Of a stretch of DNA of 64,000 nt, positions 24,055 to 58,671 are shown in pieces. The notes below the pieces were generated by a model that was not told the DNA's origin, made no database searches, and saw only the letters and a program-made list of their open reading frames with translations. A program made the translations under genes and the position numbers. This DNA comes from Polyangiaceae bacterium. Lineage in GTDB: Bacteria > Myxococcota_A > Polyangia > Polyangiales > Polyangiaceae. The stretch's first letter is position 1, and every line of letters starts with the position of its first letter. The stretch spans positions 152,364 through 216,363 of the forward strand of contig JAXLYM010000003.1 of assembly GCA_046351455.1 (NCBI GenBank). The letters run 5' to 3'.

Positions 24055-24885
24055 CTAGTATTCCCTCTCCCAGCCGCGCGGGATGCTCGGCGGGAAGCCC
24101 CAGACGTGCACGCCGTCGTGATCCGCGACGTACAGACCGCCCTGGGCCTCGTTCTCGTAGCCGACCCACGCCGGGAACTGGATCTGGTTCAGCGAGTCGC
24201 CGAGGAGGACCGTCTTGGTCTTCTTGTTCGGGTCCTTCGCCAGCTCCGCGCGATCCGCGTGGAAAATGGCCTCCGCGACGAGGTGGCGCATGTCCGAGCG
24301 GACCTCCGCGAACATCACCTGACGGAACACCTTGCCCGGACGGTGGGTCGCATACCACGCGTATTCTGCCGGCGTCAGGTTCGAGTACACGAGCATCTCG
24401 ACCGGGCCGATCGTCATGTAGAGGCGCGGCTTGCGGGCGGCGGGCTCCGCGTGGCCGATCGTCTTCGCGATCTCGGCCGGGCTCATCTCGTCGTGGCAGT
24501 CGTGGTTCGTGAACGTCGCCAGGGGGGCGCCCGCGGACATGTGCAGCGCCGCGCCGCCCGTCTTCACGAGGTAGATGTCGCGGTACGCGGAGACTGGCGT
24601 GCACGAAAAGGCGTTGTTGGAGAGGGCCGTCTTGGTCTTCTTGCCCTCGTGGTGCGTCGCCTTCAGCGCGGTCGCCGCGTCGGCGTTGGCGTCGCGCCAG
24701 CCGCCCTCATCGAGGAAGCGGAACGACGGCTTGTCGCCCTCCTGCGCGAGCGTCACGAGCACCGTGCGCCCGTGGAAGTACTTGCCCGAACCCGGGCTGC
24801 GGTGCTTCGCGAAACCCTCGACGCTGAGGCTGGTCGCGGTCAGGATTCCATGCGGCAAACTGAGGATCAGGCGGCTCTCGGCCAT
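24055..24885 (-). CDS. hypothetical protein, 276 aa
   Basis: ORF with start set at MAESRLILSLPHG. Contains His/Asp-rich motifs (HDCHDE, VADHDGVHVWG). Function unknown. Confidence 0.55.
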   Translation of the reverse strand: MAESRLILSLPHGILTATSLSVEGFAKHRSPGSGKYFHGRTVLVTLAQEGDKPSFRFLDEGGWRDANADAATALKATHHEGKKTKTALSNNAFSCTPVSAYRDIYLVKTGGAALHMSAGAPLATFTNHDCHDEMSPAEIAKTIGHAEPAARKPRLYMTIGPVEMLVYSNLTPAEYAWYATHRPGKVFRQVMFAEVRSDMRHLVAEAIFHADRAELAKDPNKKTKTVLLGDSLNQIQFPAWVGYENEAQGGLYVADHDGVHVWGFPPSIPRGWEREY

Positions 24886-25017
24886 CGGAACGGACTCTCC
24901 TTCGGGCACGCGGCCCCGCGGGTTACTGTCCCCGGAGCCACGCCACGCGGCCACCCTACTTGCCCCCGGCGCGCGTGACAACCCCACGTAGCACGCACAA
25001 TTGACTGGATCGGCGCC

Positions 25018-26073
25018 TCAGCTCTTCGGTACGTCGGACGAGAGGATCCAGAAGCCGCCGTCGCTGGGCGCGGTGAAGCCGAGGTTCTTCGGCAAGATGT
25101 TCGCCCAGCCCACGATCGTCTCCATCACGTAGAACTCGGCGCCGGTCTCGATGGTGCCAATCGTCTTTTCCTTCTCGTCGCGGCGCACGCGGATCGGGAT
25201 GTCCTTCGTCGCCTTGAGGAGCGTCGGGGTCTTGTCGAACGCGAGCTGCGCGCCCCCCACGGCGGACGATCCGGGGATCGCCTGGTCGAGCATCTCCCCT
25301 TTCTTGAGCGGGTTCAGCGCGCTCCACTTGGCCCACGCGTCGATCACGAGGTCGCCGCGCATCTGCACGTGGACGAAGCCGACCTTCGACTCCGTGCTCC
25401 AGAAGAGCTGGCCCGTCCCTTCGAGCATGTTGAGCGAGAAGACGTTCGTGCCGTTCGCGTCGTCGTAGAGGTCCAGCGTGGTCGACTTCATCTGGTAGCC
25501 GCGGCCGTTGCCCGGCACCGTGAACGTGGTCGCGGTCCCCTTCTCCAGCGCGAACGCGTCGCACGCCGCCGTGCCCTTCGCGGTCTGGCTCTGCGACCCG
25601 GCGATCGTGATCTCCGCGGTGAGCGTCGACGCCTGCGCGCTCGTCAGCTTCACCTTCTGGCCGTCCGAGATCCACACGTGCCCGGCGTAGATCGGCACGT
25701 CTTTCACCGAGTAAACGGAGAACGCGGTCGGCGCCGCGAACCCGTCGATCCGCACCGTCGCCGCGCCGTTCGACGTCGCGATCTTCGCGCGCCCCGTCGT
25801 CGGATCCGCGGGCAGCTCCGAGATTTGCAGCGGGATCACCGCGCCCGTCGCCTCCGCGATCACGCGGCCGCCGCTCACGGCGTCGTAGATCTGCGTGCCC
25901 TTCGGCGGGGGCTGCGATCCCTTGATCACGCAGCTCGACACCGGCTGCGCGGTCGTGGCCGTCGCGGTGGTGGACGGCGTCGGATCGTCGGCGCTCGCGA
26001 CCGCTGCGATCGACGCGGCGGCGGAGGCGAAAGCGAGGGGGGCGAGGAAACGTGCGAACGAGGGCGGTGTCAT
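25018..26073 (-). CDS. secreted hypothetical protein
   Basis: N-terminal signal peptide FLAPLAFASAAASIAAVASA and a Thr-rich linker. Confidence 0.7.
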   Translation of the reverse strand: MTPPSFARFLAPLAFASAAASIAAVASADDPTPSTTATATTAQPVSSCVIKGSQPPPKGTQIYDAVSGGRVIAEATGAVIPLQISELPADPTTGRAKIATSNGAATVRIDGFAAPTAFSVYSVKDVPIYAGHVWISDGQKVKLTSAQASTLTAEITIAGSQSQTAKGTAACDAFALEKGTATTFTVPGNGRGYQMKSTTLDLYDDANGTNVFSLNMLEGTGQLFWSTESKVGFVHVQMRGDLVIDAWAKWSALNPLKKGEMLDQAIPGSSAVGGAQLAFDKTPTLLKATKDIPIRVRRDEKEKTIGTIETGAEFYVMETIVGWANILPKNLGFTAPSDGGFWILSSDVPKS

Positions 26074-26160
26074 GCTGCTATATCCCCGGTGCTGCCACGG
26101 TCTGGAACGGTTCGTTGAGAGTCTAGCGAATCCTGTTCAGACGGGCGCACCTCGGCACGC

Positions 26161-27087
26161 ATGCAACCTTCTCCGTCCGACTTCCAGCTCGCGTTCGCTA
26201 CCCCCCGAAAGCTCCCGAAGGTGCGCGATCTCGCGGGCCGCGTCGTGGTGCTCGACATCGCCTTCGTGTCGGAGGCCGGCGGTCAGAGCTTCGAGAAGCT
26301 GACGCTGCCCTTCATCACGAGCCTCGGCTCGCGGTTGGCCGCGTGGGTGGATCACCACGACAGCGCGCACCACGCTCGTTTCGAAGGCGATCCGCGATTT
26401 TTGCTGACGACGAAGGCGGAGCACGGCGCCTGCCCGGAGCTCGTGACGCCGGAGGTCGTGGCGCGCGCCGGCAAGGTGGACACGATCGTCTGCCACGGCG
26501 ATTTCGACGGCCTCGCGAGCGCCGCGAAGTGGATGCGCGGCGGTGAGGAGCCGTACGCGGGGTGCGACGACGACGCCCGCGCGATCGACACGCGCCTCGG
26601 GATCCCGAGCCCGATCGCGGCCCGGTTCGATCGCGCGATCCGGGCGCGCGGACGGGATCATTCGCTGTCGGGCCTCATCGTGCGTCACCTCGCGACGGGC
26701 CTGCGCGACGCTTCTTTGTGGGGCCCCATCGACGAGGCCGGCGCGCAGATCGCCCCGCTGGAGGAGCGCGCGCGCAAGATCGCCCGCAAGTACGAGCGCG
26801 TGGAGCCGGACCTCGCGGTCGTGGACGCCACGGACTCGCAGGCGGACGGCCCGTACGACAAGACGTTGCTGCTGTTGCTCGGCCAGGAGAAGGCGCGCGC
26901 GGCGTGCGTGATCGACGGGGAAAACGCGACGTTCGCGGCGCGGTTCGACAGCGGCCTCAACTTCCTCACGCTGTTCGGCCTCTCCGGGGGGATGCCGACG
27001 GTGCTCTCGATTCAGCGCTCGCGGCTCCGGGACGCGCTCGGCAAGCTCGGCGTGAGCGAGGGCGACATCCGGCGGATCACGGCGTGA
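26161..27087 (+). CDS. hypothetical protein (WVDHHD and CHGDFDG His/Asp motifs), probably co-transcribed with the M50 protease gene
   Basis: ORF ending 29 bp before the protease gene on the same strand. Confidence 0.6.
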   Translation: MQPSPSDFQLAFATPRKLPKVRDLAGRVVVLDIAFVSEAGGQSFEKLTLPFITSLGSRLAAWVDHHDSAHHARFEGDPRFLLTTKAEHGACPELVTPEVVARAGKVDTIVCHGDFDGLASAAKWMRGGEEPYAGCDDDARAIDTRLGIPSPIAARFDRAIRARGRDHSLSGLIVRHLATGLRDASLWGPIDEAGAQIAPLEERARKIARKYERVEPDLAVVDATDSQADGPYDKTLLLLLGQEKARAACVIDGENATFAARFDSGLNFLTLFGLSGGMPTVLSIQRSRLRDALGKLGVSEGDIRRITA

Positions 27088-29267: not shown

Positions 29268-30824
29268 TCAGACCTTGTAGGCGACCGTGGAGTGATCCTT
29301 GCCGTCGAACCGCAGGAGCACGCTCTTTCCGTCCACCTTCGTGGAGACGAGCACAGGCCGCTTCCAGAGCCGCACGAGGGATGCGAGCGTCTCCCGCGCG
29401 TAATCGCTCTTGAGCTCCATGCCGTTCCACTTGTGCTCGAGGAGCAGCTCCCCACGATTGCCGTAGTTCGCGTCGATCACCTGGATCAACGGATCGCCGA
29501 AGTTCGTGAGCTGGAAGAGGAGCTTCTCCTTCACCTCCTTGAACTCGCGGCTCTCGATCTCGTACCGGTCATTGCGGCCCGAGTACCCGAACGTGTACAT
29601 CTTGGCGTCGAACACGAAGTCCGGCGTGAGGAATTCGTCGAGGAACGTGACGTCGTTGTAGAGCGACCGCACCTGGAAGATCTTCTGCCGCCCGAGGCCG
29701 AGTCGAAGGTCCCAGTTGCGGCGAGCGTCCATGTCCGTGCACTCGTCCCAGTCCTTGCCGAACTGGCCTTTGTCCCACCGTTCTTCGATGTAGCGGAACA
29801 GCTCCACGCCGAGCTTGTACGGGTTCAATCGGCCGGGCGCCGTCGCCATGACTCCCGCGTTGTTCTCCGCGTAATCGATGATCTCCGAGGCGTCGAGCAC
29901 CTTCTCGGTCATCATCTTCGAGTGCCAGTAGGCCGCCCACCCCTCGTTCATGATCTTCGTCTGGCGCTGAGGCAGGTAGTAATAAGCCTCGTCGCGGATG
30001 ATTTCGAGGATGTCGCGCTCCCACCGCTCGAGCGGCGCGTGGTCGAGCAGGAATTTGAGGATGTCGCGCTCCGGACGCTCGGGCACCTTGCGCTCGGGGC
30101 GCTGCTTTTCGAGCATCTTCTTCTTCTGCGCCTCGACGTACTCCTCGGGGTTGATGAAGGCGTCCATGTACTCCTTCGCCTGGAGCTTGGGCACCTCGAG
30201 GGGCTTGTCGTCGTCCTCGACAGGGGGCTTCACCCGGCCGGAGAAAGGGGACCACGGGTCGATGAGGTTCTCCAGCGAGAGGCAATGATCGATGAACTGC
30301 TCGATCTTCGCGATGCCGTGCCGCTCCACGTGGCGCGCGACGCGGGCCCCGTGATTGGCCATCTTGTCGATCCAGCGGCGATCCGGCTCGTACGGCTCCT
30401 GCTTCTTGATGGGATCCGTGACGGGTCCTTGCCTGTCGAGGTCCGTCGACTTGAAGCAGAAGTTGTTCTTGAAGAAGTCCACGTGACCGAACACGTGCGC
30501 CATCACGAGCTTCTGGTCGGTCAGCGAGTTCCCTTCGAGCAGGTACGCGTACGAAGGGTTGTTGTTGATGACCATCTCGTAGATCTTCGAGAGGCCGTAT
30601 TCATAGCTCTTCGAGAGCTGCTCGTACTCCATCCCGAAGCGCCAGTGCGGATACCGCGTCGGGAAGCCGCCGTACGCGGCGATCTCGTTCATCTGGTCGT
30701 ACGTCAGGATCTCGAAGATGACCGGGAACAGATCCAGGCCATAGTCGCGCGCGATCTTCTCGATGCGCTCCTGCTGCTCGCGCAGGTACCGGGGAAGCGT
30801 GGTGTTGAGTGCGAACTTGCTCAT
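29268..30824 (-). CDS. spoVR: SpoVR family protein
   Basis: Strong family match, including [15 protein letters not shown]. The start at [10 protein letters not shown] gives 518 aa. Confidence 0.9.
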
Positions 30825-30831
30825 GGCCCGC

Positions 30832-31941
30832 TCACTTCCCCTTCCCGAGGAAGTCCTTGATGCTCCCCACGATCGCGTCCTTGTCGCGGATCTCGCTCGT
30901 GACGACCCGCTCGTCCTTGTTGAAGTGCTCGCGCAGATCCTTGATGAACTGGCCGGAGCCATACGGGCTCTCGACCTGGCCGTAGGCGAACATGTTCACG
31001 CGTGGGAGGAGGCTCTTCTTGAGGATGTCGACGCAAGACAGGGTGTCATCCATCGACCAGTTGTCGCCGTCGGAGAAGTGGAATGGATAGATGTTCCACT
31101 CGGCCGCGGGGTAGCTGTCGTCGATGATCTGCGCGCACAATTTATAGGCGCTGGAGATCATCGTGCCGCCCGACTCCCGCGTGTGGAAGAAGGTGTCGCG
31201 GTCGACCTCGCGCGCGACGGCGTCGTGGATGATGAAGCGCGACTCCAGCCCTTTGTATTGCTTGGTCAGCCACGCGTCGATCCAGAAGCTCTCGATGCGC
31301 ACGATCTCCTTCTGCTCGTCCCCCATCGAGCCGGAGACATCCATCATGTAGATGATGACCGCGTTCGTCACGGGCTCGTTGATGGTCTTCCACGAGCGGT
31401 AACGCTTGTCCTCCCGGATGGGGACGACCACGGGCTGGTCCGGCGCGAACGTGCCGCTCGAGATCATGCGCTTCAGCGCCTCGCGGTACGTGCGCTTGAA
31501 ATGGCGCAGCGACTCGGGGCCGACGCGGCGGATGCCCGAGTACCGATCGTGCGCGCTGGAGACGGTGTTCTTGCCCTTGTCCTGGATGTCGGGCAGCTCC
31601 AGCTCCTCGCCGAGGATCGCCGCCAGCTCGTCGAGCGTGACGTCCACTTCGAGGTTGTGCTCGCCTTGATCCTGGCCGGCCTGGCCCTTCCCCGGCTGCT
31701 TCTCTTCGCCGCCGTTCAAAGGGTCGCCGGGCTTGCCGTCACCCTGGCCGACGCCCCCCTTCTGCTTGTCGCCGAAGCGGAAGCGCGGGATGTCGATCTG
31801 CGGGATGGGGATCGACACGCGATCCTTTCCTTGCCGGCCGATCAGCTCTCCCTGGGAGATGTACTTGCGCAGGTTCTGGCGGATCTTCCCCCGCACGATC
31901 TGTCGGAACCGCCCGTGGTCCTGGTCGATCTTCAGTGACAC
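30832..31941 (-). CDS. yeaH: YeaH/YhbH family protein (DUF444, vWA-like)
   Basis: Motifs [18 protein letters not shown] and [14 protein letters not shown] match the YeaH family. 7 bp upstream of spoVR. Confidence 0.9.
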
Positions 31942-40071: not shown

Positions 40072-40584
40072 TCACCCCGCGCGCTGACTGAGGATGTTCG
40101 GCGTCCGCATCGCCAGCGCATCCATGCGGTCCTTCGCGGTCTTCCCGAGCGGCACAAGCTCATCCGGCAACTTCGCGAAGAACGTCTTCACGATCTCCGG
40201 CGGCGGCTCCGTGACCACGGCGTCCGCCGGGGGCGTCACATACACCTTGATCGAGATCTTCGTCACGCCGCCGATCGGCAGCGGCGCCTCCTCCGGGAAC
40301 GTCTTGTCGAAGGCCGCGAGCGCTCCCACGAGCAGCGCGCCCCGCAACGCCGCGTCTCCGGAGTCCGTGTATTCCTCCACGCGGAACGGGGGCGCATAGG
40401 CCTTGTCGAAGCGGGTCCGGAGGAGCGCTGTCGCCTCCGGTCGGGCGATCAACACGTCCGACTCGTACCCTTGGCCCGGAGGGCCGCCGCGGTCCCAGTA
40501 ATCGACGCCGAGCCTGCCCGGATCACCGCTCGTCACCGCCTCGCGCAGCTTCGTGAGGATCTCGTCTCGGGCTTGGTCGCTCAT
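40072..40584 (-). CDS. hypothetical small protein; candidate immunity protein for the adjacent PAAR-metalloprotease
   Basis: 170-aa ORF starting 16 bp downstream of the PAAR-toxin gene on the same strand. No signal peptide. Confidence 0.55.
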   Translation of the reverse strand: MSDQARDEILTKLREAVTSGDPGRLGVDYWDRGGPPGQGYESDVLIARPEATALLRTRFDKAYAPPFRVEEYTDSGDAALRGALLVGALAAFDKTFPEEAPLPIGGVTKISIKVYVTPPADAVVTEPPPEIVKTFFAKLPDELVPLGKTAKDRMDALAMRTPNILSQRAG

Positions 40585-40600
40585 CTTCGTGGCTCTCTGT

Positions 40601-41620
40601 TCAAGGCAGGCCGTAGTTGGTCAGGATCTGCTGATACTGGTCGTCGTACGGGTGGGGGGCGGCTCCATTGCTCGGCCACGTCTGCGACATGATGTTGTTG
40701 GTCTTGCTCGGGTCATTGGGGACGCTGCCATTGAATTTGCGCGGCGGCCAGCCCCACTGCCACGAATAATCATCGTGGTACTCGTCCTGCAAACCGAGCG
40801 AATGGCCATATTCGTGCGCCGCCACGTAGTTGTTGGCGTTCGCGTCGGCCGAAGTCTGATGCCCGTCGCCGTCGCCGTACAAGCTCTGGTTCGACCGCGT
40901 GGTGGAGTCGTCCACGATGATCTGGTCGTACCCCGGCGTCGCGGACGTGCCCGGACCCCGGTATTGCGACGTGACATCCACGTTGACCGTGTACGTCTCC
41001 CCGTTGATCGTCGTCGTGCGGCCGCCCCACATCGCCTCGATCTGCGCCTCCGCGCGGGCCGCGTACTCCGGAGATGCGTTCGGGCCGGAGTATTCGAGGA
41101 ACGAGAGGATATAGATGTTGTGCGTCTCGGTGCTGATCGCCACCAGCGAGTTGCCCGCGCGCGAGCCCGGCGTCCACCCCGGATGCGCCTTGAATTTCAG
41201 CGTCGGACCGCCGATCTCCACCGTGGCCGCGCCCTGCGTGATCTCTCCGGTGCAGAGGGATTGATCCGTCTTTCGGGACGCGAATCGGCCCTCGATCATC
41301 ACCGTCTCGCTGCCCCACGCGATCGGGTTCGGGCCGTGGAACCACTGCTTGCAGTCGTTCGTGTCCGTCACGCGCGCGGCTGGGAGACCCTCGATGTCGG
41401 TCTTCTGGGCGCACGGGACGGTGATCTCGCTGCCGGAAGAATGCGAGGTGTCATCGGTCTTGCGGGCTGCAGGCAGGGACGGCACGACATCACCTCGGCG
41501 CGGTCTCGACTCGAAAGCGGCGAGGCTATCCGATCCGGCGAGGTCGGAGAAGAGCGGGGCACCTCTCCGCTTGCGAGCCCCGCGAAACTGAGGCAAGCCG
41601 CGCTGGATGCTCTCCGGCAA
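40601..41620 (-). CDS. PAAR-domain protein with C-terminal zinc metalloprotease domain (HExxHxxGxxD, snapalysin-like)
   Basis: Three PAAR-type repeats (SLPAARKTDD, GLPAARVTDTNDC, RFASRKTDQSLC) followed by AAHEYGHSLGLQDEY. The ATG at 41620 overlaps the divergent kinase start; an in-frame GTG at 41485 (DVVPSLPAAR) is an alternative start. Confidence 0.75.
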   Translation of the reverse strand: MPESIQRGLPQFRGARKRRGAPLFSDLAGSDSLAAFESRPRRGDVVPSLPAARKTDDTSHSSGSEITVPCAQKTDIEGLPAARVTDTNDCKQWFHGPNPIAWGSETVMIEGRFASRKTDQSLCTGEITQGAATVEIGGPTLKFKAHPGWTPGSRAGNSLVAISTETHNIYILSFLEYSGPNASPEYAARAEAQIEAMWGGRTTTINGETYTVNVDVTSQYRGPGTSATPGYDQIIVDDSTTRSNQSLYGDGDGHQTSADANANNYVAAHEYGHSLGLQDEYHDDYSWQWGWPPRKFNGSVPNDPSKTNNIMSQTWPSNGAAPHPYDDQYQQILTNYGLP

Positions 41621-44378: not shown

Positions 44379-44512
44379 TTGGCTGTGCTTGATCTTTCTT
44401 CTGGCGGCCGGTGACACAACGGTGACATGGCGTGGATAAAACCAACACCTCGGTGATTCATCTTCGGTCCTGTCACGGGCGGTCACCCGCTAGCCCGCCC
44501 AGGAGGACTCTC

Positions 44513-45757
44513 ATGCTCCGTCTTCGCTCCATCGTCCCCGTGTTCGCTCTCGCGATCTCCGCCTCGGCCTGCAACCAGCCGGACGTGGACACGAGCACCC
44601 CCGACGACACCACCGCGGCGAAGCCCACCTCCACCGAAGGCGCCTCCGTCCGCGTGGAGCAGGCCGAGCGCGCGCTCGACGTGGGGCGCGACGTGGCCGG
44701 AGCCCGCGCGACGCTCGAAGGGATCGTGAAGGACACCAGCGTCCCCGCCGACGTCCGCGAGCGCGCGTCCTTCGCTCTCTCGCGCGCGTTCGAGGCGCAG
44801 AAGGACACGGAAGGGGCCATTCGTACCATCGAGTCGCTCCTCGCCGCGCACGCCGAAGACCGCAGCTGGCCCGCGCAGGAACAGGCCGAGAAGCGGCTCC
44901 GCAAGCTGCTCACCGGCAAGGAAGACAGGCCCTCTCCGCTCCGCCGGCCGGAGGAGAAGGTCGCGCCCGTCGCGCGCGCGCTGGCCGCGTATTTCCCGGC
45001 GAAGAAGGACGGGCCGACCGTGATCGATCTCCGGATGTTCGGCGGCGACATGGGGGTGTCCGAGGGGCTCGGCACGTTCCGCATCGGCGACGCCCTGCGC
45101 GAGATCGCCGACGAATCGTGCCCTCTTTGCGACACCAAGGTGAAGGTGCAGACGAGCTCTTCGCGCTCCGGCGGCTGGACGTCCATCCCCGGCGAGAGGC
45201 CGCGGCTCGCCAGCGCTCTGACCGTGTTCTACACGCACCTCGGCGACCCCATCCCCGCGCGGTACGACGACGTGCTGCCGGTGCCGATGAGCGAGGTGCT
45301 CGGTCACCTGCAGAAGGGCGAAGGCGTCGTGATCGCCAAGGAGCGGACGGGTGCGCCGCCTTCGATCCTGCTCGCGGCCCCGCGGGAGGCGCAGCTCGCG
45401 GAGGTGGAAGAGGCCTTCTCGAAGATGGCCAGTCTGCCGGGCTCGCTGACCGTCATCAAGGTGAGCGCCGGCCTCAAGAACGAGGAGATCCGGTCGACCA
45501 TGCGCGCGAACGGGATGCCCGCGTTCAAGAAGTGCTACGACGAGCTGCTCAAGCGCTCTTCGACCGCGACGGGGCGCACGGAGATCGCGTTCACGATCAA
45601 GGGCGACGGCGCGCTCGACGACGTGCACGTGGACGCGACGGACGGGCTCAAAGAGGGCACGTTCCAGCGCTGCATGGAGGCCGCGATGAAGACGATCTCG
45701 TTCCCGGCCACCAGCCAGTCGACGACCGTGAAATACCCGATGACGTTCACGCCGTGA
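44513..45757 (+). CDS. lipoprotein with C-terminal AgmX/PglI-like domain
   Basis: Lipobox ALAISASAC. C-terminal FKKCYDELLKRS...VHVDATDGLKEGTFQRCMEAAMKTISFPA...VKYPMTFTP resembles the myxobacterial AgmX/PglI C-terminal domain. Confidence 0.7.
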   Translation: MLRLRSIVPVFALAISASACNQPDVDTSTPDDTTAAKPTSTEGASVRVEQAERALDVGRDVAGARATLEGIVKDTSVPADVRERASFALSRAFEAQKDTEGAIRTIESLLAAHAEDRSWPAQEQAEKRLRKLLTGKEDRPSPLRRPEEKVAPVARALAAYFPAKKDGPTVIDLRMFGGDMGVSEGLGTFRIGDALREIADESCPLCDTKVKVQTSSSRSGGWTSIPGERPRLASALTVFYTHLGDPIPARYDDVLPVPMSEVLGHLQKGEGVVIAKERTGAPPSILLAAPREAQLAEVEEAFSKMASLPGSLTVIKVSAGLKNEEIRSTMRANGMPAFKKCYDELLKRSSTATGRTEIAFTIKGDGALDDVHVDATDGLKEGTFQRCMEAAMKTISFPATSQSTTVKYPMTFTP

Positions 45758-46947: not shown

Positions 46948-47607
46948 ATGAAGAGCACTTCGCTTGGGCTCTCAATCGTGCTGGTGTCCGCGATGGCGGT
47001 CGCTTGCACTCAAGCGGAACAGAATGTCCAGGGCGGATCCAGCGGTGAGACCGGCGGATCAGGCCCCGGATTGACGATCTACCCCCTGCCCGACGGTGGA
47101 GGCGATACCGGAGGGAGCAACACGGGTGGAACCGATACGGGAGGCGCGCCGGGCGGACCCTGCGGAGGGACCGAGCACGCGCAATGCCTCGACGGCGAAT
47201 ACTGCGACTTCCCGTCCGACGTGTGTGGACAGGACGGCATCGACGGCACATGTACGCCGAAGCCGGACACGTGCTCCAACGAGTACAACCCGGTCTGCGC
47301 CTGCGACGGGCGGGTCTACGACAACATCTGCATCGCCCAGATGTCAGGCATCGACATCCAGATGCTGGGCGGCTGTCCCCCCGGGGACGGCCAGTTCCCC
47401 TGCGGCGCGGAGATCTGCACCGCGGCGGACGAATACTGCCAGATCGACCTGCCCACCGAGCCGGGCGATCCCACGGTGTACGCCTGCGCGCCTCTGCCGC
47501 CGAACTGCCAGGCCGAGGGCGCGACGTGCGCGTGCCTCGCGGACCTGCCGTGCGCGAAATCGTGCGAGCAGGACACGCAAGGCGGATTCACGCTGACGTG
47601 CCCTTGA
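46948..47607 (+). CDS. secreted Cys-rich lipoprotein with Kazal-type protease-inhibitor-like domain
   Basis: Lipobox AMAVAC. Segment CSNEYNPVCACDGRVYDNIC fits the Kazal C-x-P-V-C-x-x-D-G-x-x-Y-x-N-x-C pattern. About 20 further Cys. Confidence 0.7.
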   Translation: MKSTSLGLSIVLVSAMAVACTQAEQNVQGGSSGETGGSGPGLTIYPLPDGGGDTGGSNTGGTDTGGAPGGPCGGTEHAQCLDGEYCDFPSDVCGQDGIDGTCTPKPDTCSNEYNPVCACDGRVYDNICIAQMSGIDIQMLGGCPPGDGQFPCGAEICTAADEYCQIDLPTEPGDPTVYACAPLPPNCQAEGATCACLADLPCAKSCEQDTQGGFTLTCP

Positions 47608-47628: not shown

Positions 47629-49656
47629 TCAGGGGAGGATGCCGAGCCGGCTGAAGAAGCCGTAGCTCCCGACTACGAGCGCCTTCATGTCCTCGAAGGT
47701 GCCCTGTTGCATCTCCATGCCGATGTCGAGCCGGGTCATCGTGCCGTTCGCGGACGCGTTCTCCGTGAGGACGACCGGCGTCATTCCCTTGTTCGGCAGG
47801 GACAGGAGCGACTGCGCGAGCTTCAGGTCGTCGGCGTTCATGAACTGGGGGCTGGCCAGCGCGAGGCCGGAGAGCAGATTGCCCACCTTGTCGCCCGGCA
47901 GAGAGGCCGACACGAAGCCTCCGAACATCTGCTTTCCGTTCTTCAGCGTGTCGAGCCCCGCGCGCGCGCCGAGCTGGCCCTTGTCGTCCGCCCCTTGTTT
48001 CACGGCGAGGAGGCGCTTCACGACCTCGTCCTTCGCGGCGCCGAACGCGAGCCACGAATTGTCGCCGTCGCCCATCACGAAGATGTAGAGCTTGGCGGTC
48101 ATCCTGGTCTGGCCTTGTTTCGAGTCGTCCTCGAACGGGGCCTCCAGGTTGGGGATCGAGATCTCGACTTGCTCCGCGCCCGCGCCGAGAGAGGCCGGGG
48201 CGCCGCCGGTCTTCACGACGGGGAGTGACTTCGCGTCCGTCGGCCCGAGCTCCTTCTTGAGAGAGGCCTGCACGGAAGCGGATTTGTACGCGTCGACCCA
48301 CGCTTTGAGCTGCTTCTTCATCGCGGCGGGGCCCTCGTCCGCGCCGATCAGCGTCCAGCCGACCATGCGCTGGAGCATCGCTTCGGAGGCCTTCACGGCG
48401 TTGGCCTTCGTGGTGTCCGCGGGCATCGGCACGTTCGTCGGGCCGTGCGACACGACCACGTGGGTGTCCTTGCCGAAGGGCAGATCGAGGAGCTGCGCGA
48501 TCTTCGTCCGGTCCGCGGCGCTCGCGAAATTCTCCGTCGCCATCGCGGCGCTGAGCAGATCGCGCGCCTTGCCGAGGACGCCCGTGAACCGCGACGAATC
48601 CACGCCGCGGCCGTAAAAGGCACCTTGGCTGTCCGCGGGCTGGCGCCAGTAAATCGCGGGCGGCGGGCCGCTGCGGGCCATCCGGTCGGTGAGCGTGCCG
48701 GCGATGAACGAGGACGTGCTGGCCAGATCCACGTTGGCGGTGGCGCGCAGACAGGCGCCGCGCGTCTCGGTCTTCGCGTCGATCGTGACGCGGTGGAGAT
48801 CGCCCCACAGCTTCGTCACGTCGTCCTGCACGGCGGAGGCCGCCTCGAACGCGAGGCCGTCGAAGCGCTTGTCGCCCGAGGAGCCGTACTCCGTGACGAG
48901 CGCCCCGGACAGGGCCTTCAGGTAATTGGGGCCGAGCGTCGGATACCGCTTCTTCAGCACGTCGAAGCGACCCTCGAACCGCATGTCGGAGGTGCCGAGA
49001 TCGACGCTCGGGGCGGTGCGCGCGAGATAAGGAGCCAGCGCCTCCAGGCTCTTTTCGCTCTCCGCGCACACGAGGCGGGCCGGGGTCGCGCCCGCGCTCG
49101 CCGCGACGCCGCACGCGATGCCGCGCTTGCCTTTCTGGCCCCACAGGCCCGGGGTGATCTCCGCCGGCTCCTGGCCTTCCGGGGTGATCGCGACCTTCGC
49201 GCTGTCCAGCGACGTGAGGCCCATCGCGACCGCGACCATCGGCGGACGCACTTTTGCGCCTGGATCCAGCGAGGCGACGACGTCCACCGGGGCGTCGAGG
49301 GCGACGAGGCTCGCGACCTTGCGCACGTCCACGGGGCGGCGGAGGACCTCTTGAAGGACCATGTTCACGGCCATGCGCGCGTTCACCTCGACGATGACCG
49401 GGGCCACGCCCGCGCACGACGCGAGGTTCGAGGCGGTGGCGATCGGGCTCTTCCAGCGGGCGATCGCGACGACGTCGCTCGGCTCCGCGACGGGGCTCAG
49501 GTCCGGACCGGCGGCGACGGAGGCGGTGGGGGCGGCCGTCTCGACCGGCTTCACCGAGGCCGTCGGCGTGGGCGGCGGCTGAGGAGCGGGGGCAGGGCCG
49601 CACCCGCAGAGTCCGAGGATGGCCAGCGAAACGGCGCCAAAACGGCTCTTGCGCAT
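47629..49656 (-). CDS. large lipoprotein of unknown function
   Basis: Lipobox AILGLCGC, Pro-rich linker, then a 640-aa globular region. Confidence 0.75.
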   Translation of the reverse strand: MRKSRFGAVSLAILGLCGCGPAPAPQPPPTPTASVKPVETAAPTASVAAGPDLSPVAEPSDVVAIARWKSPIATASNLASCAGVAPVIVEVNARMAVNMVLQEVLRRPVDVRKVASLVALDAPVDVVASLDPGAKVRPPMVAVAMGLTSLDSAKVAITPEGQEPAEITPGLWGQKGKRGIACGVAASAGATPARLVCAESEKSLEALAPYLARTAPSVDLGTSDMRFEGRFDVLKKRYPTLGPNYLKALSGALVTEYGSSGDKRFDGLAFEAASAVQDDVTKLWGDLHRVTIDAKTETRGACLRATANVDLASTSSFIAGTLTDRMARSGPPPAIYWRQPADSQGAFYGRGVDSSRFTGVLGKARDLLSAAMATENFASAADRTKIAQLLDLPFGKDTHVVVSHGPTNVPMPADTTKANAVKASEAMLQRMVGWTLIGADEGPAAMKKQLKAWVDAYKSASVQASLKKELGPTDAKSLPVVKTGGAPASLGAGAEQVEISIPNLEAPFEDDSKQGQTRMTAKLYIFVMGDGDNSWLAFGAAKDEVVKRLLAVKQGADDKGQLGARAGLDTLKNGKQMFGGFVSASLPGDKVGNLLSGLALASPQFMNADDLKLAQSLLSLPNKGMTPVVLTENASANGTMTRLDIGMEMQQGTFEDMKALVVGSYGFFSRLGILP

Positions 49657-56544: not shown

Positions 56545-58671
56545 GTGCCCGATCTCGCAAAAGGCCCCGATGCTCCCTCCCCCGCGGCGGAACAAGCCAC
56601 CTCCGCGGCGGCGAAACAGGCACGCGGTGTCCCGCCGTCGAAAGAGGCTGTCTCCGCGACCAAAGACACCGGCTCCTCGAAACAGGCGGCCTCTGCCCCG
56701 AAGGAGGCCGGGCGCGGCGCGAGCTTGCTCGAACAAGGGCTCGGCGTGCTCGTGGCGGCGCTGCCGTTCGGAGTGGCCATCTCGCGCGCGGCGGCGACCG
56801 GGCAGTGGCGCGACGACCTCACCGCCGTCCGCGATCTCGGGCTCGTGAGCGTCGGAGTGTCGGGCGGGCTGTCCACGATCACGGCGCAGATCGCGGCGCT
56901 GTTGCCGCTCGGGAGCCGCACGTTCCGCACGTCCGCGGCGTCGGCCGTCGCGCTCGGGCTCGCGGCGTACCTCACGTACCGGCTCGCGCTGCGCGTGCTG
57001 CGGGCCACGTTGCCTCTGCCGATCCCGCCGAAGAAAGGCGCGCCCACGGCGGCGGACGGGACGCCGCGCGCGACGTCGCGGCTGCTCGCGCTGGTGTCGG
57101 CGATCGCGGCGCTCACGGCCTCGCTGTCGCCTGCGTGGCAGCTCGAAGGCACCGTCGGCGGCGGCGCGATGTGGGCCACGTGCGCGGTGCTCGCGGCGGT
57201 GTCGGTCGCGCTGCGCATCGGCGCACCCGGAGCTTCAGATCAAGGCAATTCACGCTCTCAGGGAGTGCGACCGTTCCTCGCGTTCGGGGCGCTCGCGGGC
57301 GCGGCGTTCGCGGAGCAGCCGACCGCCGGCCTCTGCGCGGGCGCGGCGCTCGCGGCCGTGCTGCTCGTGCCGCGGCTCCAGACGGCGGTGCTCGATCGCG
57401 CGGATCGAGCCGTTTCCAAGCTCCTCAAGCGCCGCGTGGAGCCTTCGTTCGCGCGGCCCGCGACGGCGGCGCCCGGCGTGACCGAGCTCGTGGCGGCCCT
57501 CGTGGCCGCGGTGATCGTCGCGTCGCTCCTGCTCGCGCCCGTCGTGCTGCGGCCGCTGGCGCCGCGCGCGTGGGCGGATCTCGGGCGGTTCGTGTCGTCC
57601 GCGAGCGTCGCGGCGATGGATACGCCCGCGCAGGAGACGGCGGCGCTCGCCGCGTGGGGTCGCGAGATCGGCTTCCTTTCGCTGGCGATCGCGCTCACGG
57701 GCGCGGGGCTCGGCGTGCTGCGGGCGCGGACGCGGGGCCCCATCGCGGCGCTGCTCGCGCTCGTGATCCTCGACACGCTGATGCCGGCGCGGCTCGCTTC
57801 GTTCCTCACGGCGGATCCGCTGGCGCCTCTCCGCTGCATCGCGATCGCGGCGCTCTCGGTGGGCTCCGCGTTCGGCGTGCACGAGATCACCGTGGCGCTG
57901 CGGCGCTCGCGCGTGCGGTTCGCGAGGCCGGCGAGCGTGCTCGTCGTGATGTTCCACGTGACGTTGATCGCGCTCACCTCGGAGGAGGCGGCGGTCACCG
58001 CGGATCGCGAGCAGCAGGTCGCGGCCGAGGTGTGGACGGACGAGGCGCTCGGCGCGCTGCCGTTCCGCTCGGCGGTGCTCGTGCGATCTCCCGCGATCGC
58101 CTGGCGTTTGTGGGCCGCGCGCGCGACGCGGGGCGAGCGGCCGGACGTGCTCGTGGTGCCGGCGCCGCTGCTCGCGCGGGGCACGGTGGCGCGGGTGCTC
58201 CTCTCGAACGAGCGCGCGGCGAGCCTCTTGTTGCGCGACATGGCCCTCACCGGCGCGCCGAGCGAGCACGCGTTGTCGACGCTCGCGGACGCGCGCCCCC
58301 TCTTCGCGGAGCTGTTCCCGGGCTGGAATCCGCGGCTCTTCAAGCACCTCGCGGTGAACGGGATGTGGCTGGGTTACGCGGCGGAGCCCCGCGGCCCCTC
58401 GGATCGCAAGATCGCTCTGCTCGCGCAGGCGGCGCCTCTCGGCCGGGTGCTCCGCGCCGTCGGCCAAGCCGCGGAGTCGGATCCGTCGACGGGCGCCGTG
58501 CTCGCGGACAGCCTGAAAGGCCAGGCGGCCTTGCTGATCGCGCTCGGCGAAGCGGAGACCGCGCAGACGTTCTTGATGAAGGTGAACGAGCTCACGCCGA
58601 AGAAGGCCGCCGTCATGGCCGGCCCGACCCGCGCGACGCTGAAGCCCCCGAGCGACGGCCGTTCGCGATAG
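56545..58671 (+). CDS. polytopic membrane protein of unknown function (more than 10 TM helices)
   Basis: Long Ala/Leu-rich hydrophobic ORF. The N-terminal ~60 aa are polar, so the true start may be later. Confidence 0.65.
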   Translation: MPDLAKGPDAPSPAAEQATSAAAKQARGVPPSKEAVSATKDTGSSKQAASAPKEAGRGASLLEQGLGVLVAALPFGVAISRAAATGQWRDDLTAVRDLGLVSVGVSGGLSTITAQIAALLPLGSRTFRTSAASAVALGLAAYLTYRLALRVLRATLPLPIPPKKGAPTAADGTPRATSRLLALVSAIAALTASLSPAWQLEGTVGGGAMWATCAVLAAVSVALRIGAPGASDQGNSRSQGVRPFLAFGALAGAAFAEQPTAGLCAGAALAAVLLVPRLQTAVLDRADRAVSKLLKRRVEPSFARPATAAPGVTELVAALVAAVIVASLLLAPVVLRPLAPRAWADLGRFVSSASVAAMDTPAQETAALAAWGREIGFLSLAIALTGAGLGVLRARTRGPIAALLALVILDTLMPARLASFLTADPLAPLRCIAIAALSVGSAFGVHEITVALRRSRVRFARPASVLVVMFHVTLIALTSEEAAVTADREQQVAAEVWTDEALGALPFRSAVLVRSPAIAWRLWAARATRGERPDVLVVPAPLLARGTVARVLLSNERAASLLLRDMALTGAPSEHALSTLADARPLFAELFPGWNPRLFKHLAVNGMWLGYAAEPRGPSDRKIALLAQAAPLGRVLRAVGQAAESDPSTGAVLADSLKGQAALLIALGEAETAQTFLMKVNELTPKKAAVMAGPTRATLKPPSDGRSR

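Follow-up and report, generated by a model that had tools for sequence, protein, structure and literature searches.

An orphan PAAR-metzincin gene and its downstream partner: a probable effector-immunity cassette in a Polyangiaceae bacterium

The stretch of DNA analyzed here (hereafter the window) comprises 64,000 nucleotides of contig JAXLYM010000003.1 from the metagenome-assembled genome of a Polyangiaceae bacterium, a soil myxobacterium. On its reverse strand it carries two adjacent genes, one for a protein with an N-terminal PAAR domain and a C-terminal zinc-peptidase domain (the effector; 40601..41485) and one for a protein of 170 amino acids (aa), its candidate immunity partner (40072..40584). 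The longest open reading frame (ORF) of the effector, 40601..41620(−), encodes 339 aa, and its first possible start is a TTG codon at 41620, not an ATG as given in the preliminary description of this locus. Such a start would overlap by 14 bp the divergent start of a histidine-kinase gene (ATG at 41607), an overlap that the description had noted correctly. It had also pointed to a GTG codon at 41485, and this start is well supported. The three nearest homologs of the effector are 294 aa long each and begin with MPLLPAARKTDD, while M-x-x-LPAAR forms the N-terminus of nearly all complete effector homologs. A Shine-Dalgarno-like GAGGTGAT (41489..41496, −), complementary to the 3' tail of 16S rRNA, can be read off the sequence 3 nt upstream of the GTG. 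Finally, translation of 40601..41485(−) gives a 294-aa protein that NCBI lists with an identical sequence as MFO0587104.1, 'PAAR domain-containing protein [Polyangiaceae bacterium]', on a 626-kb contig. Because the ribosome-binding site, the protein annotated by NCBI and the homologs, in their lengths and N-termini, all agree, the GTG at 41485 is, as judged from these comparisons, the real start of the gene, which ends with a TGA stop codon at 40601..40603; the same three lines of evidence rule out the longer TTG-started form. The 5' extension (41486..41620, −), which occurs in no homolog and overlaps the kinase ATG, is probably untranslated and part of a divergent intergenic/promoter region shared with the histidine-kinase gene.

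The PAAR domain occupies residues 1-91 (41213..41485, −) and is built of three PAAR + DxxxH/C units. The hidden Markov model (HMM) check that the preliminary description had proposed for it gave a clear match to Pfam PF05488 (PAAR_motif), which scored 42 bits where the gathering cut-off is 27 (E=1.1e-10) and spanned profile positions 4-68 of 70. All three PAAR motifs listed there were found at their sites, namely LPAARKTDD (41453..41479), LPAARVTDTNDC (41351..41386) and RFASRKTDQSLC (41252..41287), all on the reverse strand. A DxxxH/C element comes after every one of them, giving PAARKTDDTSH, PAARVTDTNDC and a degenerate third unit, FASRKTDQSLC. The candidate zinc ligands H15, C45, H50 and C78 are kept in nearly all PAAR-containing rows of the family alignment. 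The best matches of the domain among PDB sequences were PAAR proteins or an effector of type VI secretion systems (T6SS): 4jiw (E=1.1e-5), Tre23 (1.3e-5) and 4jiv (about 1e-5). The segment AARKTDDTSH at the effector N-terminus fits the AARxxDxxxH 'prePAAR' pattern, which was defined together with the PAAR motif by Ahmad et al. 2020 (PMC7773334). Since this pattern is contiguous with the remainder of the domain, the PAAR domain of the window protein is unsplit. Apart from the motif, the hallmarks of prePAAR/Eag effectors are missing: the protein has no transmembrane segment (maximum 15-residue hydropathy 0.84), and the window contains no Eag gene.

The C-terminal domain (residues 92-294, 203 aa; 40604..41212, −) contains a AAHEYGHSLGLQDEY zinc motif; the zinc-binding and catalytic sequence HEYGHSLGLQDEY is encoded at 40778..40816 (−) and includes H224, E225, H228, G231 and D234 of the 294-aa protein. 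Its HEYGHSLGLQD agrees with the extended metzincin motif HExxHxxGxxH/D. In an alignment of 17 toxin-domain sequences H224, E225, H228, G231, D234, E235, Y236 and M266 are invariant, and the zinc motif and M266 are more than 90% conserved among 88 remote relatives. M266 is located in NNIMSQ (codon 40688..40690, −) and aligns with the Met-turn region of InhA2, which makes it a candidate Met-turn residue. An AlphaFold2 model of the domain, built on the alignment of 17 relatives, reached a pLDDT of 91.6 and a pTM of 0.87. It has the fold of a metzincin catalytic domain, with the corresponding order of elements: a beta-sheet backed by a helix, then the active-site helix bearing HExxH and a small C-terminal subdomain ending in a helix. 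Fold comparison scored ADAM22 highest (9.7), followed by ulilysin (9.5), mirolysin (8.6), CpaA (8.4), snapalysin (8.3; 116 of 134 residues aligned, 18% identity) and astacin (8.2), with IgA peptidase (5.4) and InhA2 (5.3) lower. With an invariant motif and a confident model, the domain is by its predicted fold a metzincin with Asp as the third zinc ligand; in this respect the HExxHxxGxxD zinc metalloprotease of the preliminary description was recognized correctly. Just past the third ligand, a Trp-rich insertion of about 11 residues, SWQWGWPPRKF (40733..40765, −), is modelled as a beta-hairpin (pLDDT about 70). Only the window protein and its four closest relatives, P0001-P0004, have it in full; in P0006 and P0007 it is both shorter and different, and elsewhere it is absent. 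It may shape the substrate cleft.

The more specific assignment of this domain to the M7 snapalysin branch did not hold. The window protein gave no match to Pfam M7 (PF02031, gathering threshold 25 bits) at E<=1, and adamalysins and ulilysin are structurally nearer to it than snapalysin. Snapalysin (PDB 1c7k and 4hx3) is secreted through Sec as an enzyme on its own, with about 130 aa, whereas the window domain has 203 aa, is fused to PAAR, contains extra N-terminal strands and lacks a signal peptide or hydrophobic segment. The M6 family is slightly closer. Among the solved structures, immune inhibitor A/thuringilysin (InhA2; M6; PDB 4yu5) is the best sequence relative: the family profile matched it at E=0.005 across 60 residues that extend from HExxHxxGLPDEY into the Met-turn region, and snapalysin at E=0.03 in the motif only. 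Around the motif, residues 92-294 gave sub-threshold Pfam matches to M64 (18.4 bits), M6 (18.3), M10 (16.0) and Reprolysin_3 (14.1). The M6 cut-offs were missed by the window protein both in Pfam (PF05547, 18.3 against 22 bits) and in TIGR03296 (20.1 against 110.8); a distant homolog, P0013, exceeds the Pfam one (24.3 against 22 bits). For M7, P0013 scored 18.4 bits, and one of the 88 relatives matched at E<1e-3. Neither Tox-MPTase2-5 nor DUF4157/eCIS_core was matched by the window protein in Pfam at E<=1. As far as sequence comparison can tell, the toxin domain is a family of its own bordering M6, and not demonstrably a part of the M7 branch.

A word-indexed search of 5.8 billion protein clusters retrieved only 17 relatives of the toxin, with a recorded PAAR domain in 12 of them and an N-terminal truncation in several others. 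When 1.84 billion representative proteins were searched exhaustively with an HMM, 19 sequences matched at E<1e-30; the number rose to 65 for E<1e-10 and to 514 for E<1e-3. In species-representative genomes the close family was present at two Myxococcota loci only, L011 (71% identity) and L012 (39%), the other matches being distant Chitinophagaceae proteins of about 28% identity. The PAAR-fused form found in the window is, by these searches, restricted to a small and mostly Polyangiaceae clade.

The toxin domain itself is carried by a much broader set of proteins. PAAR was found in 16 of the 88 scanned relatives, a Tox-PAAR-like domain in two and a complete VgrG fusion in one (P0060). Nine have an N-terminal eCIS_core/DUF4157 domain, the marker of extracellular contractile injection systems (eCIS), and the toxin domain at the C-terminus; HEAT repeats occur in 12 and a sorting tail of the type IX secretion system (T9SS) in seven. 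Several further relatives are the C-terminal tips of Rhs/YD proteins. The motif HExGHxxGLxDxY is common to all scanned carriers; the proteins that combine it with VgrG, DUF4157/eCIS_core, Rhs/YD or HEAT/T9SS parts include P0060, P0082, P0089, P0094, P0102, P0110, P0114, P0119, P0078, P0081, P0092, P0101 and P0106. The domain of Chitinophagaceae resides in HEAT-repeat or T9SS-tailed secreted proteins. No Pfam or NCBIfam model captures the toxin domain. Its range of PAAR, VgrG, Rhs and eCIS carriers therefore marks it as a polymorphic-toxin module.

The similarity to exported enzymes brings in another explanation, according to which the protease is a housekeeping or predatory secreted metzincin of the M7/M6 kind that has been fused to a PAAR-like domain, and the 170-aa partner is an intracellular latency inhibitor. 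Staphostatins are such inhibitors, acting on staphopains. The motif does resemble those of secreted M6 and M7 peptidases, many remote relatives in Bacteroidota are lipoproteins exported by a signal peptide or by T9SS, and a partner of the window-clade type could protect the producer cytoplasm only. We nevertheless regard this explanation as improbable. The window protein has neither a signal peptide nor a hydrophobic segment, most members of the close family (E<1e-30) with a complete N-terminus are PAAR-fused, the Pfam thresholds of M7 and M6 were missed, and the lipoprotein partners of a sister clade, described below, indicate protection against an incoming toxin.

The partner gene (40072..40584, −) begins 16 nt past the stop codon of the toxin gene on the same strand, in agreement with the geometry given in the preliminary description. 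Its NCBI counterpart, on the same contig as MFO0587104.1, is the hypothetical protein MFO0587103.1. The protein matched no Pfam or NCBIfam model, no relation to known immunity or protease-inhibitor families was detected, and neither TIMPs nor serralysin inhibitors nor sermetstatin showed similarity to it. Mago nashi is the nearest match to the fold predicted for it, with no known protease inhibitor matched. The partner family is small: 12 clusters were found by a single-sequence search and 23 by a profile search of the 5.8 billion proteins. Its invariant residues include W30, G33-G34, P36-G37, R58, D60 and P65-P66.

The pairing of the two genes is strongly conserved. At every homolog locus with DNA read, a partner homolog was located directly behind the toxin gene, in at least five unrelated neighborhoods. 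The pair lies between clpA and a two-component system in the window, after an FGE-sulfatase gene in L001 and between ychF and a guanylate cyclase gene in L006-L009; it was also found in L092. Behind more distant toxins the partner is 44% identical at the P0013 locus (L002, also L003-L005), 31% at the P0015 locus (L091) and 29% at L012. These values (29-44%) accompany toxins of 39-59% identity, so that the two proteins diverge roughly in step. The adjacent ORF was thus correctly proposed as the cognate partner, its synteny being kept in unrelated contexts and behind distant homologs. This conserved pairing is, in our opinion, the strongest evidence for a functional and mobile two-gene unit, and the mobility of the cassette is deduced solely from the differing neighborhoods.

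The locus of P0013 (L002:4397-6498) deserves separate consideration. In this protein a Gly-zipper, transmembrane-like insertion of about 50 residues separates AARxxDxxxH from the rest of the PAAR domain. The preceding gene encodes a DcrB/DUF1795 protein, an Eag-type T6SS chaperone (30.2 bits against a cut-off of 27.2), and the following one a partner homolog. P0013 thus combines all prePAAR/Eag features, i.e., the motif, the transmembrane-like insertion and an adjacent DUF1795 gene, and its arrangement is the layout of split-PAAR effectors with Eag chaperones described for T6SS (PMC7773334). We consider that this locus provides independent support for the link of the family to T6SS.

The partners fall into two groups that appear to differ in location. 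Those of the window clade (13 sequences with the motif WDRGGPPGQGYESD) have no signal peptide. In the window itself the 170-aa ORF cannot be extended N-terminally because of an in-frame stop 12 codons upstream, which also rules out a hidden signal peptide. Partners of the sister clade, which carry the motif WQHGGGPGxGFTSD and accompany P0015-type toxins, show clear lipoprotein signals, e.g., MKRRTAMLAAMAAAGAWIVGC (L091:1089-1700; P0187-P0189, P0192, P0194 and P0196). In the P0013 partner the N-terminus is hydrophobic, and it is coding, as shown by a GC content at third codon positions (GC3) of 0.93. One toxin-partner family therefore seems to be neutralized in different compartments. It should be mentioned that the partner homolog at L012:10573-11136 was called by NCBI as a 139-aa protein from an internal ATG; a longer, GTG-started ORF adds a lipobox-like ...ACATLGC leader, and the GC3 values of 0.70 and 0.79 are indecisive between the two starts.

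The same observations bear on the role of the 170-aa protein, which might be a loading adaptor or chaperone of the PAAR protein, or a co-effector, instead of an immunity protein. It has no detectable relation to known immunity and protease-inhibitor families, in the window clade it is cytoplasmic like adaptors, and Mago, its closest structural match, is a protein-binding platform. Several facts leave little room for such a role. The known adaptors DUF4123, DUF2169 and DUF1795 are usually encoded upstream of the effector, and at the P0013 locus, where an Eag-type chaperone does stand upstream, the partner is still found downstream. Lipoprotein signals of the sister clade are incompatible with loading in the cytoplasm and typical of immunity proteins, and the partner diverges roughly in step with the toxin.

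Taken together, these data are best explained if the two genes form an effector-immunity cassette that serves a contractile injection system, in all likelihood a T6SS encoded elsewhere in the genome, and in which the metzincin cleaves its targets and the partner blocks it; we estimate the probability of this interpretation at about 0.72. Several points weigh against it. The NCBIfam equivalog model of T6SS PAAR proteins, NF033420, scored 31.8 bits against a cut-off of 124, so by this measure the canonical stand-alone PAAR protein of T6SS has no equivalog in the window protein. T6SS structural genes (vgrG, hcp, tss) were not found among the GC3-supported ORFs of at least 100 aa in the 64-kb window. 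No terminator-like or sigma-70 promoter-like site was detected, although in this lineage such a scan carries no information. The partner, cytoplasmic here and a lipoprotein in the sister clade, points to more than one possible compartment of action. Finally, PAAR subtypes serve either T6SS or eCIS with no clear sequence boundary between them (PMC8651086).

The last point leaves a small share of probability for a delivery by other means: the PAAR protein could tip an eCIS/PVC-like particle or another phage-tail-like device, with the protease aimed at eukaryotic or other prey. The eCIS_core/DUF4157 marker on nine of the 88 toxin-domain relatives and a weak PDB match of the PAAR domain to the eCIS tip protein SalCis10 (E=1.3e-3) are consistent with this. 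We find it unlikely all the same, since the match to T6SS PAAR proteins is about 100 times better than that to SalCis10, P0013 with its Eag/DUF1795 chaperone and split PAAR belongs to the family, no eCIS genes were found in the window, and a dedicated, co-inherited immunity gene is more in keeping with contact-dependent killing between kin than with particles directed against eukaryotes.

For the preferred effector-immunity cassette the following course of events can be proposed. The PAAR cone (residues 1-91) would cap a VgrG spike, and the whole protein would be fired into a neighboring cell. There the 203-residue C-terminal domain would act as a zinc endopeptidase, with H224, H228 and D234 binding zinc, E225 serving as the catalytic base and M266 forming the Met-turn, and its cleavage of one or more proteins would be what poisons the recipient. 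In the producer and its sister cells, binding by the co-transcribed 170-aa protein would keep the protease blocked. Because the window-clade partner lacks a signal peptide, the neutralization, and probably the action of the toxin too, would occur in the cytoplasm; for the window pair we hold this with low certainty. The T6SS dependence, the proteolytic toxicity, the direct inhibition by the partner, the compartment and the substrate are all elements that we infer.

A broader hypothesis may be put forward more tentatively. The toxin domain could represent an unrecognized family of metzincin toxins on PAAR, VgrG, Rhs and DUF4157-eCIS carriers, delivered into the cytoplasm in the window clade, and the Mago-like partner could be a new structural class of metzincin inhibitor that switches between cytoplasmic and lipoprotein forms. 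We consider this possible and, at present, doubtful; if true, one protease family would kill from either side of the inner membrane.

[quoted passage not shown] Their toxins are nucleases or NADases, in contrast to the predicted metzincin-fold zinc peptidase of the window protein. The window PAAR is moreover unsplit and comes without a transmembrane segment or an Eag gene, features that only the distant homolog P0013 has. Evolved PAAR cassettes of myxobacteria lie away from the T6SS cluster (PMC12077131).

Among peptidase toxins, a close parallel is VgrG2b of the P. aeruginosa H2-T6SS with PA0261, likewise a spike-borne antibacterial toxin with HExxH and a small downstream immunity ORF (PMC6899460). 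The thermolysin-like domain of VgrG2b uses Glu as the additional ligand, carries a DUF4157 annotation and exerts its action in the periplasm (PMC6899460), whereas the window domain has Asp as third ligand, a candidate Met-turn, a metzincin fold by its model, no PF13699 match and a partner without signal peptide. Tox-MPTase1-5, HopH1/NleD M91 and ALF-MPTase (Zhang et al. 2012) follow the same concept of small zincin C-termini on toxins delivered by Rhs, PAAR or PVC, but these families were described as zincin-like and Wss1-related, not as metzincins with an Asp ligand and a Met-turn (PMC3482391). None of these polymorphic-toxin metallopeptidase families was matched by the window protein in Pfam at E<=1. 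An Rhs-M91 metallopeptidase toxin is also known (PMC13556075), and M35-like peptidases occur among PAAR-associated toxins (PMC8651086). The preliminary description had called the fold uncommon for a T6SS toxin. This is too broad for metallopeptidases, which are already represented by VgrG2b, Rhs-M91 and the Tox-MPTases, and it stands for the metzincin type: full-text searches of the literature revealed no metzincin- or snapalysin-type T6SS or PAAR toxin.

The surroundings of the cassette consist of housekeeping genes. Its neighbors include aspS, clpA, a histidine kinase with a response regulator, mazG, mutL, a sigma-70 factor, Ser/Thr kinases, PFOR subunits and a spoVR/DUF444 pair. No T6SS or eCIS family was matched by the GC3-supported ORFs of at least 100 aa in the window, and no other PAAR motif is present in it, which agrees with the earlier view of an orphan cassette. 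The GC content of the cassette (62-69%) is within local variation, the window as a whole having 68%, and gives no signature of horizontal transfer. An isolated position is known for this group of bacteria: in M. xanthus all PAAR genes are accompanied by toxin-immunity genes at a distance from the one T6SS locus, and kin discrimination depends on them (PMC12077131), and the highest known PAAR copy number, 35, is that of Chondromyces apiculatus, a Polyangiaceae genome (PMC8651086). By analogy with these cases, the orphan position of the cassette is normal for myxobacteria.

Some other features of the window should be mentioned. The adjacent SpoVR-like and DUF444 genes (29268-31941, −) resemble a stress module of the PrkA-YeaH-YcgB type, but the ORFs scanned revealed no prkA. 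A 219-aa ORF at 46948-47607(+) has a borderline match to the Kazal-type serine-protease inhibitors (PF00050, 21.3 bits against 21, E=2.8e-4). Long ORFs with high GC3 (308-708 aa) and no Pfam match at E<=0.01 were found at 44432-45757, 47629-49656 and 56545-58671, and others of this size range at 24055-27087 had no Pfam match at E<=1e-5.

Thus, the cassette probably belongs to a common type of bacterial weapon, here assembled from two protein families not described before. Its architecture is not surprising, since PAAR-toxin/immunity cassettes are well known and myxobacteria have them by the dozen. The value of the finding lies in the toxin family, the partner family and the puzzle of their compartment. 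From the clan to which the toxin is assigned, the metzincins, our literature searches retrieved no characterized T6SS toxin. The domain is met again on carriers of the VgrG, Rhs, eCIS-marker and T9SS kinds, so that one HMM could suffice for the annotation of several hundred proteins. If the partner inhibits the protease directly, it would represent a new way of blocking a metzincin, and the split between cytoplasmic and lipoprotein partners would offer a natural experiment on the site of protease action. Since VgrG2b, a characterized T6SS metallopeptidase toxin, still has no identified substrate (PMC6899460), this small soluble pair may provide a tractable model.

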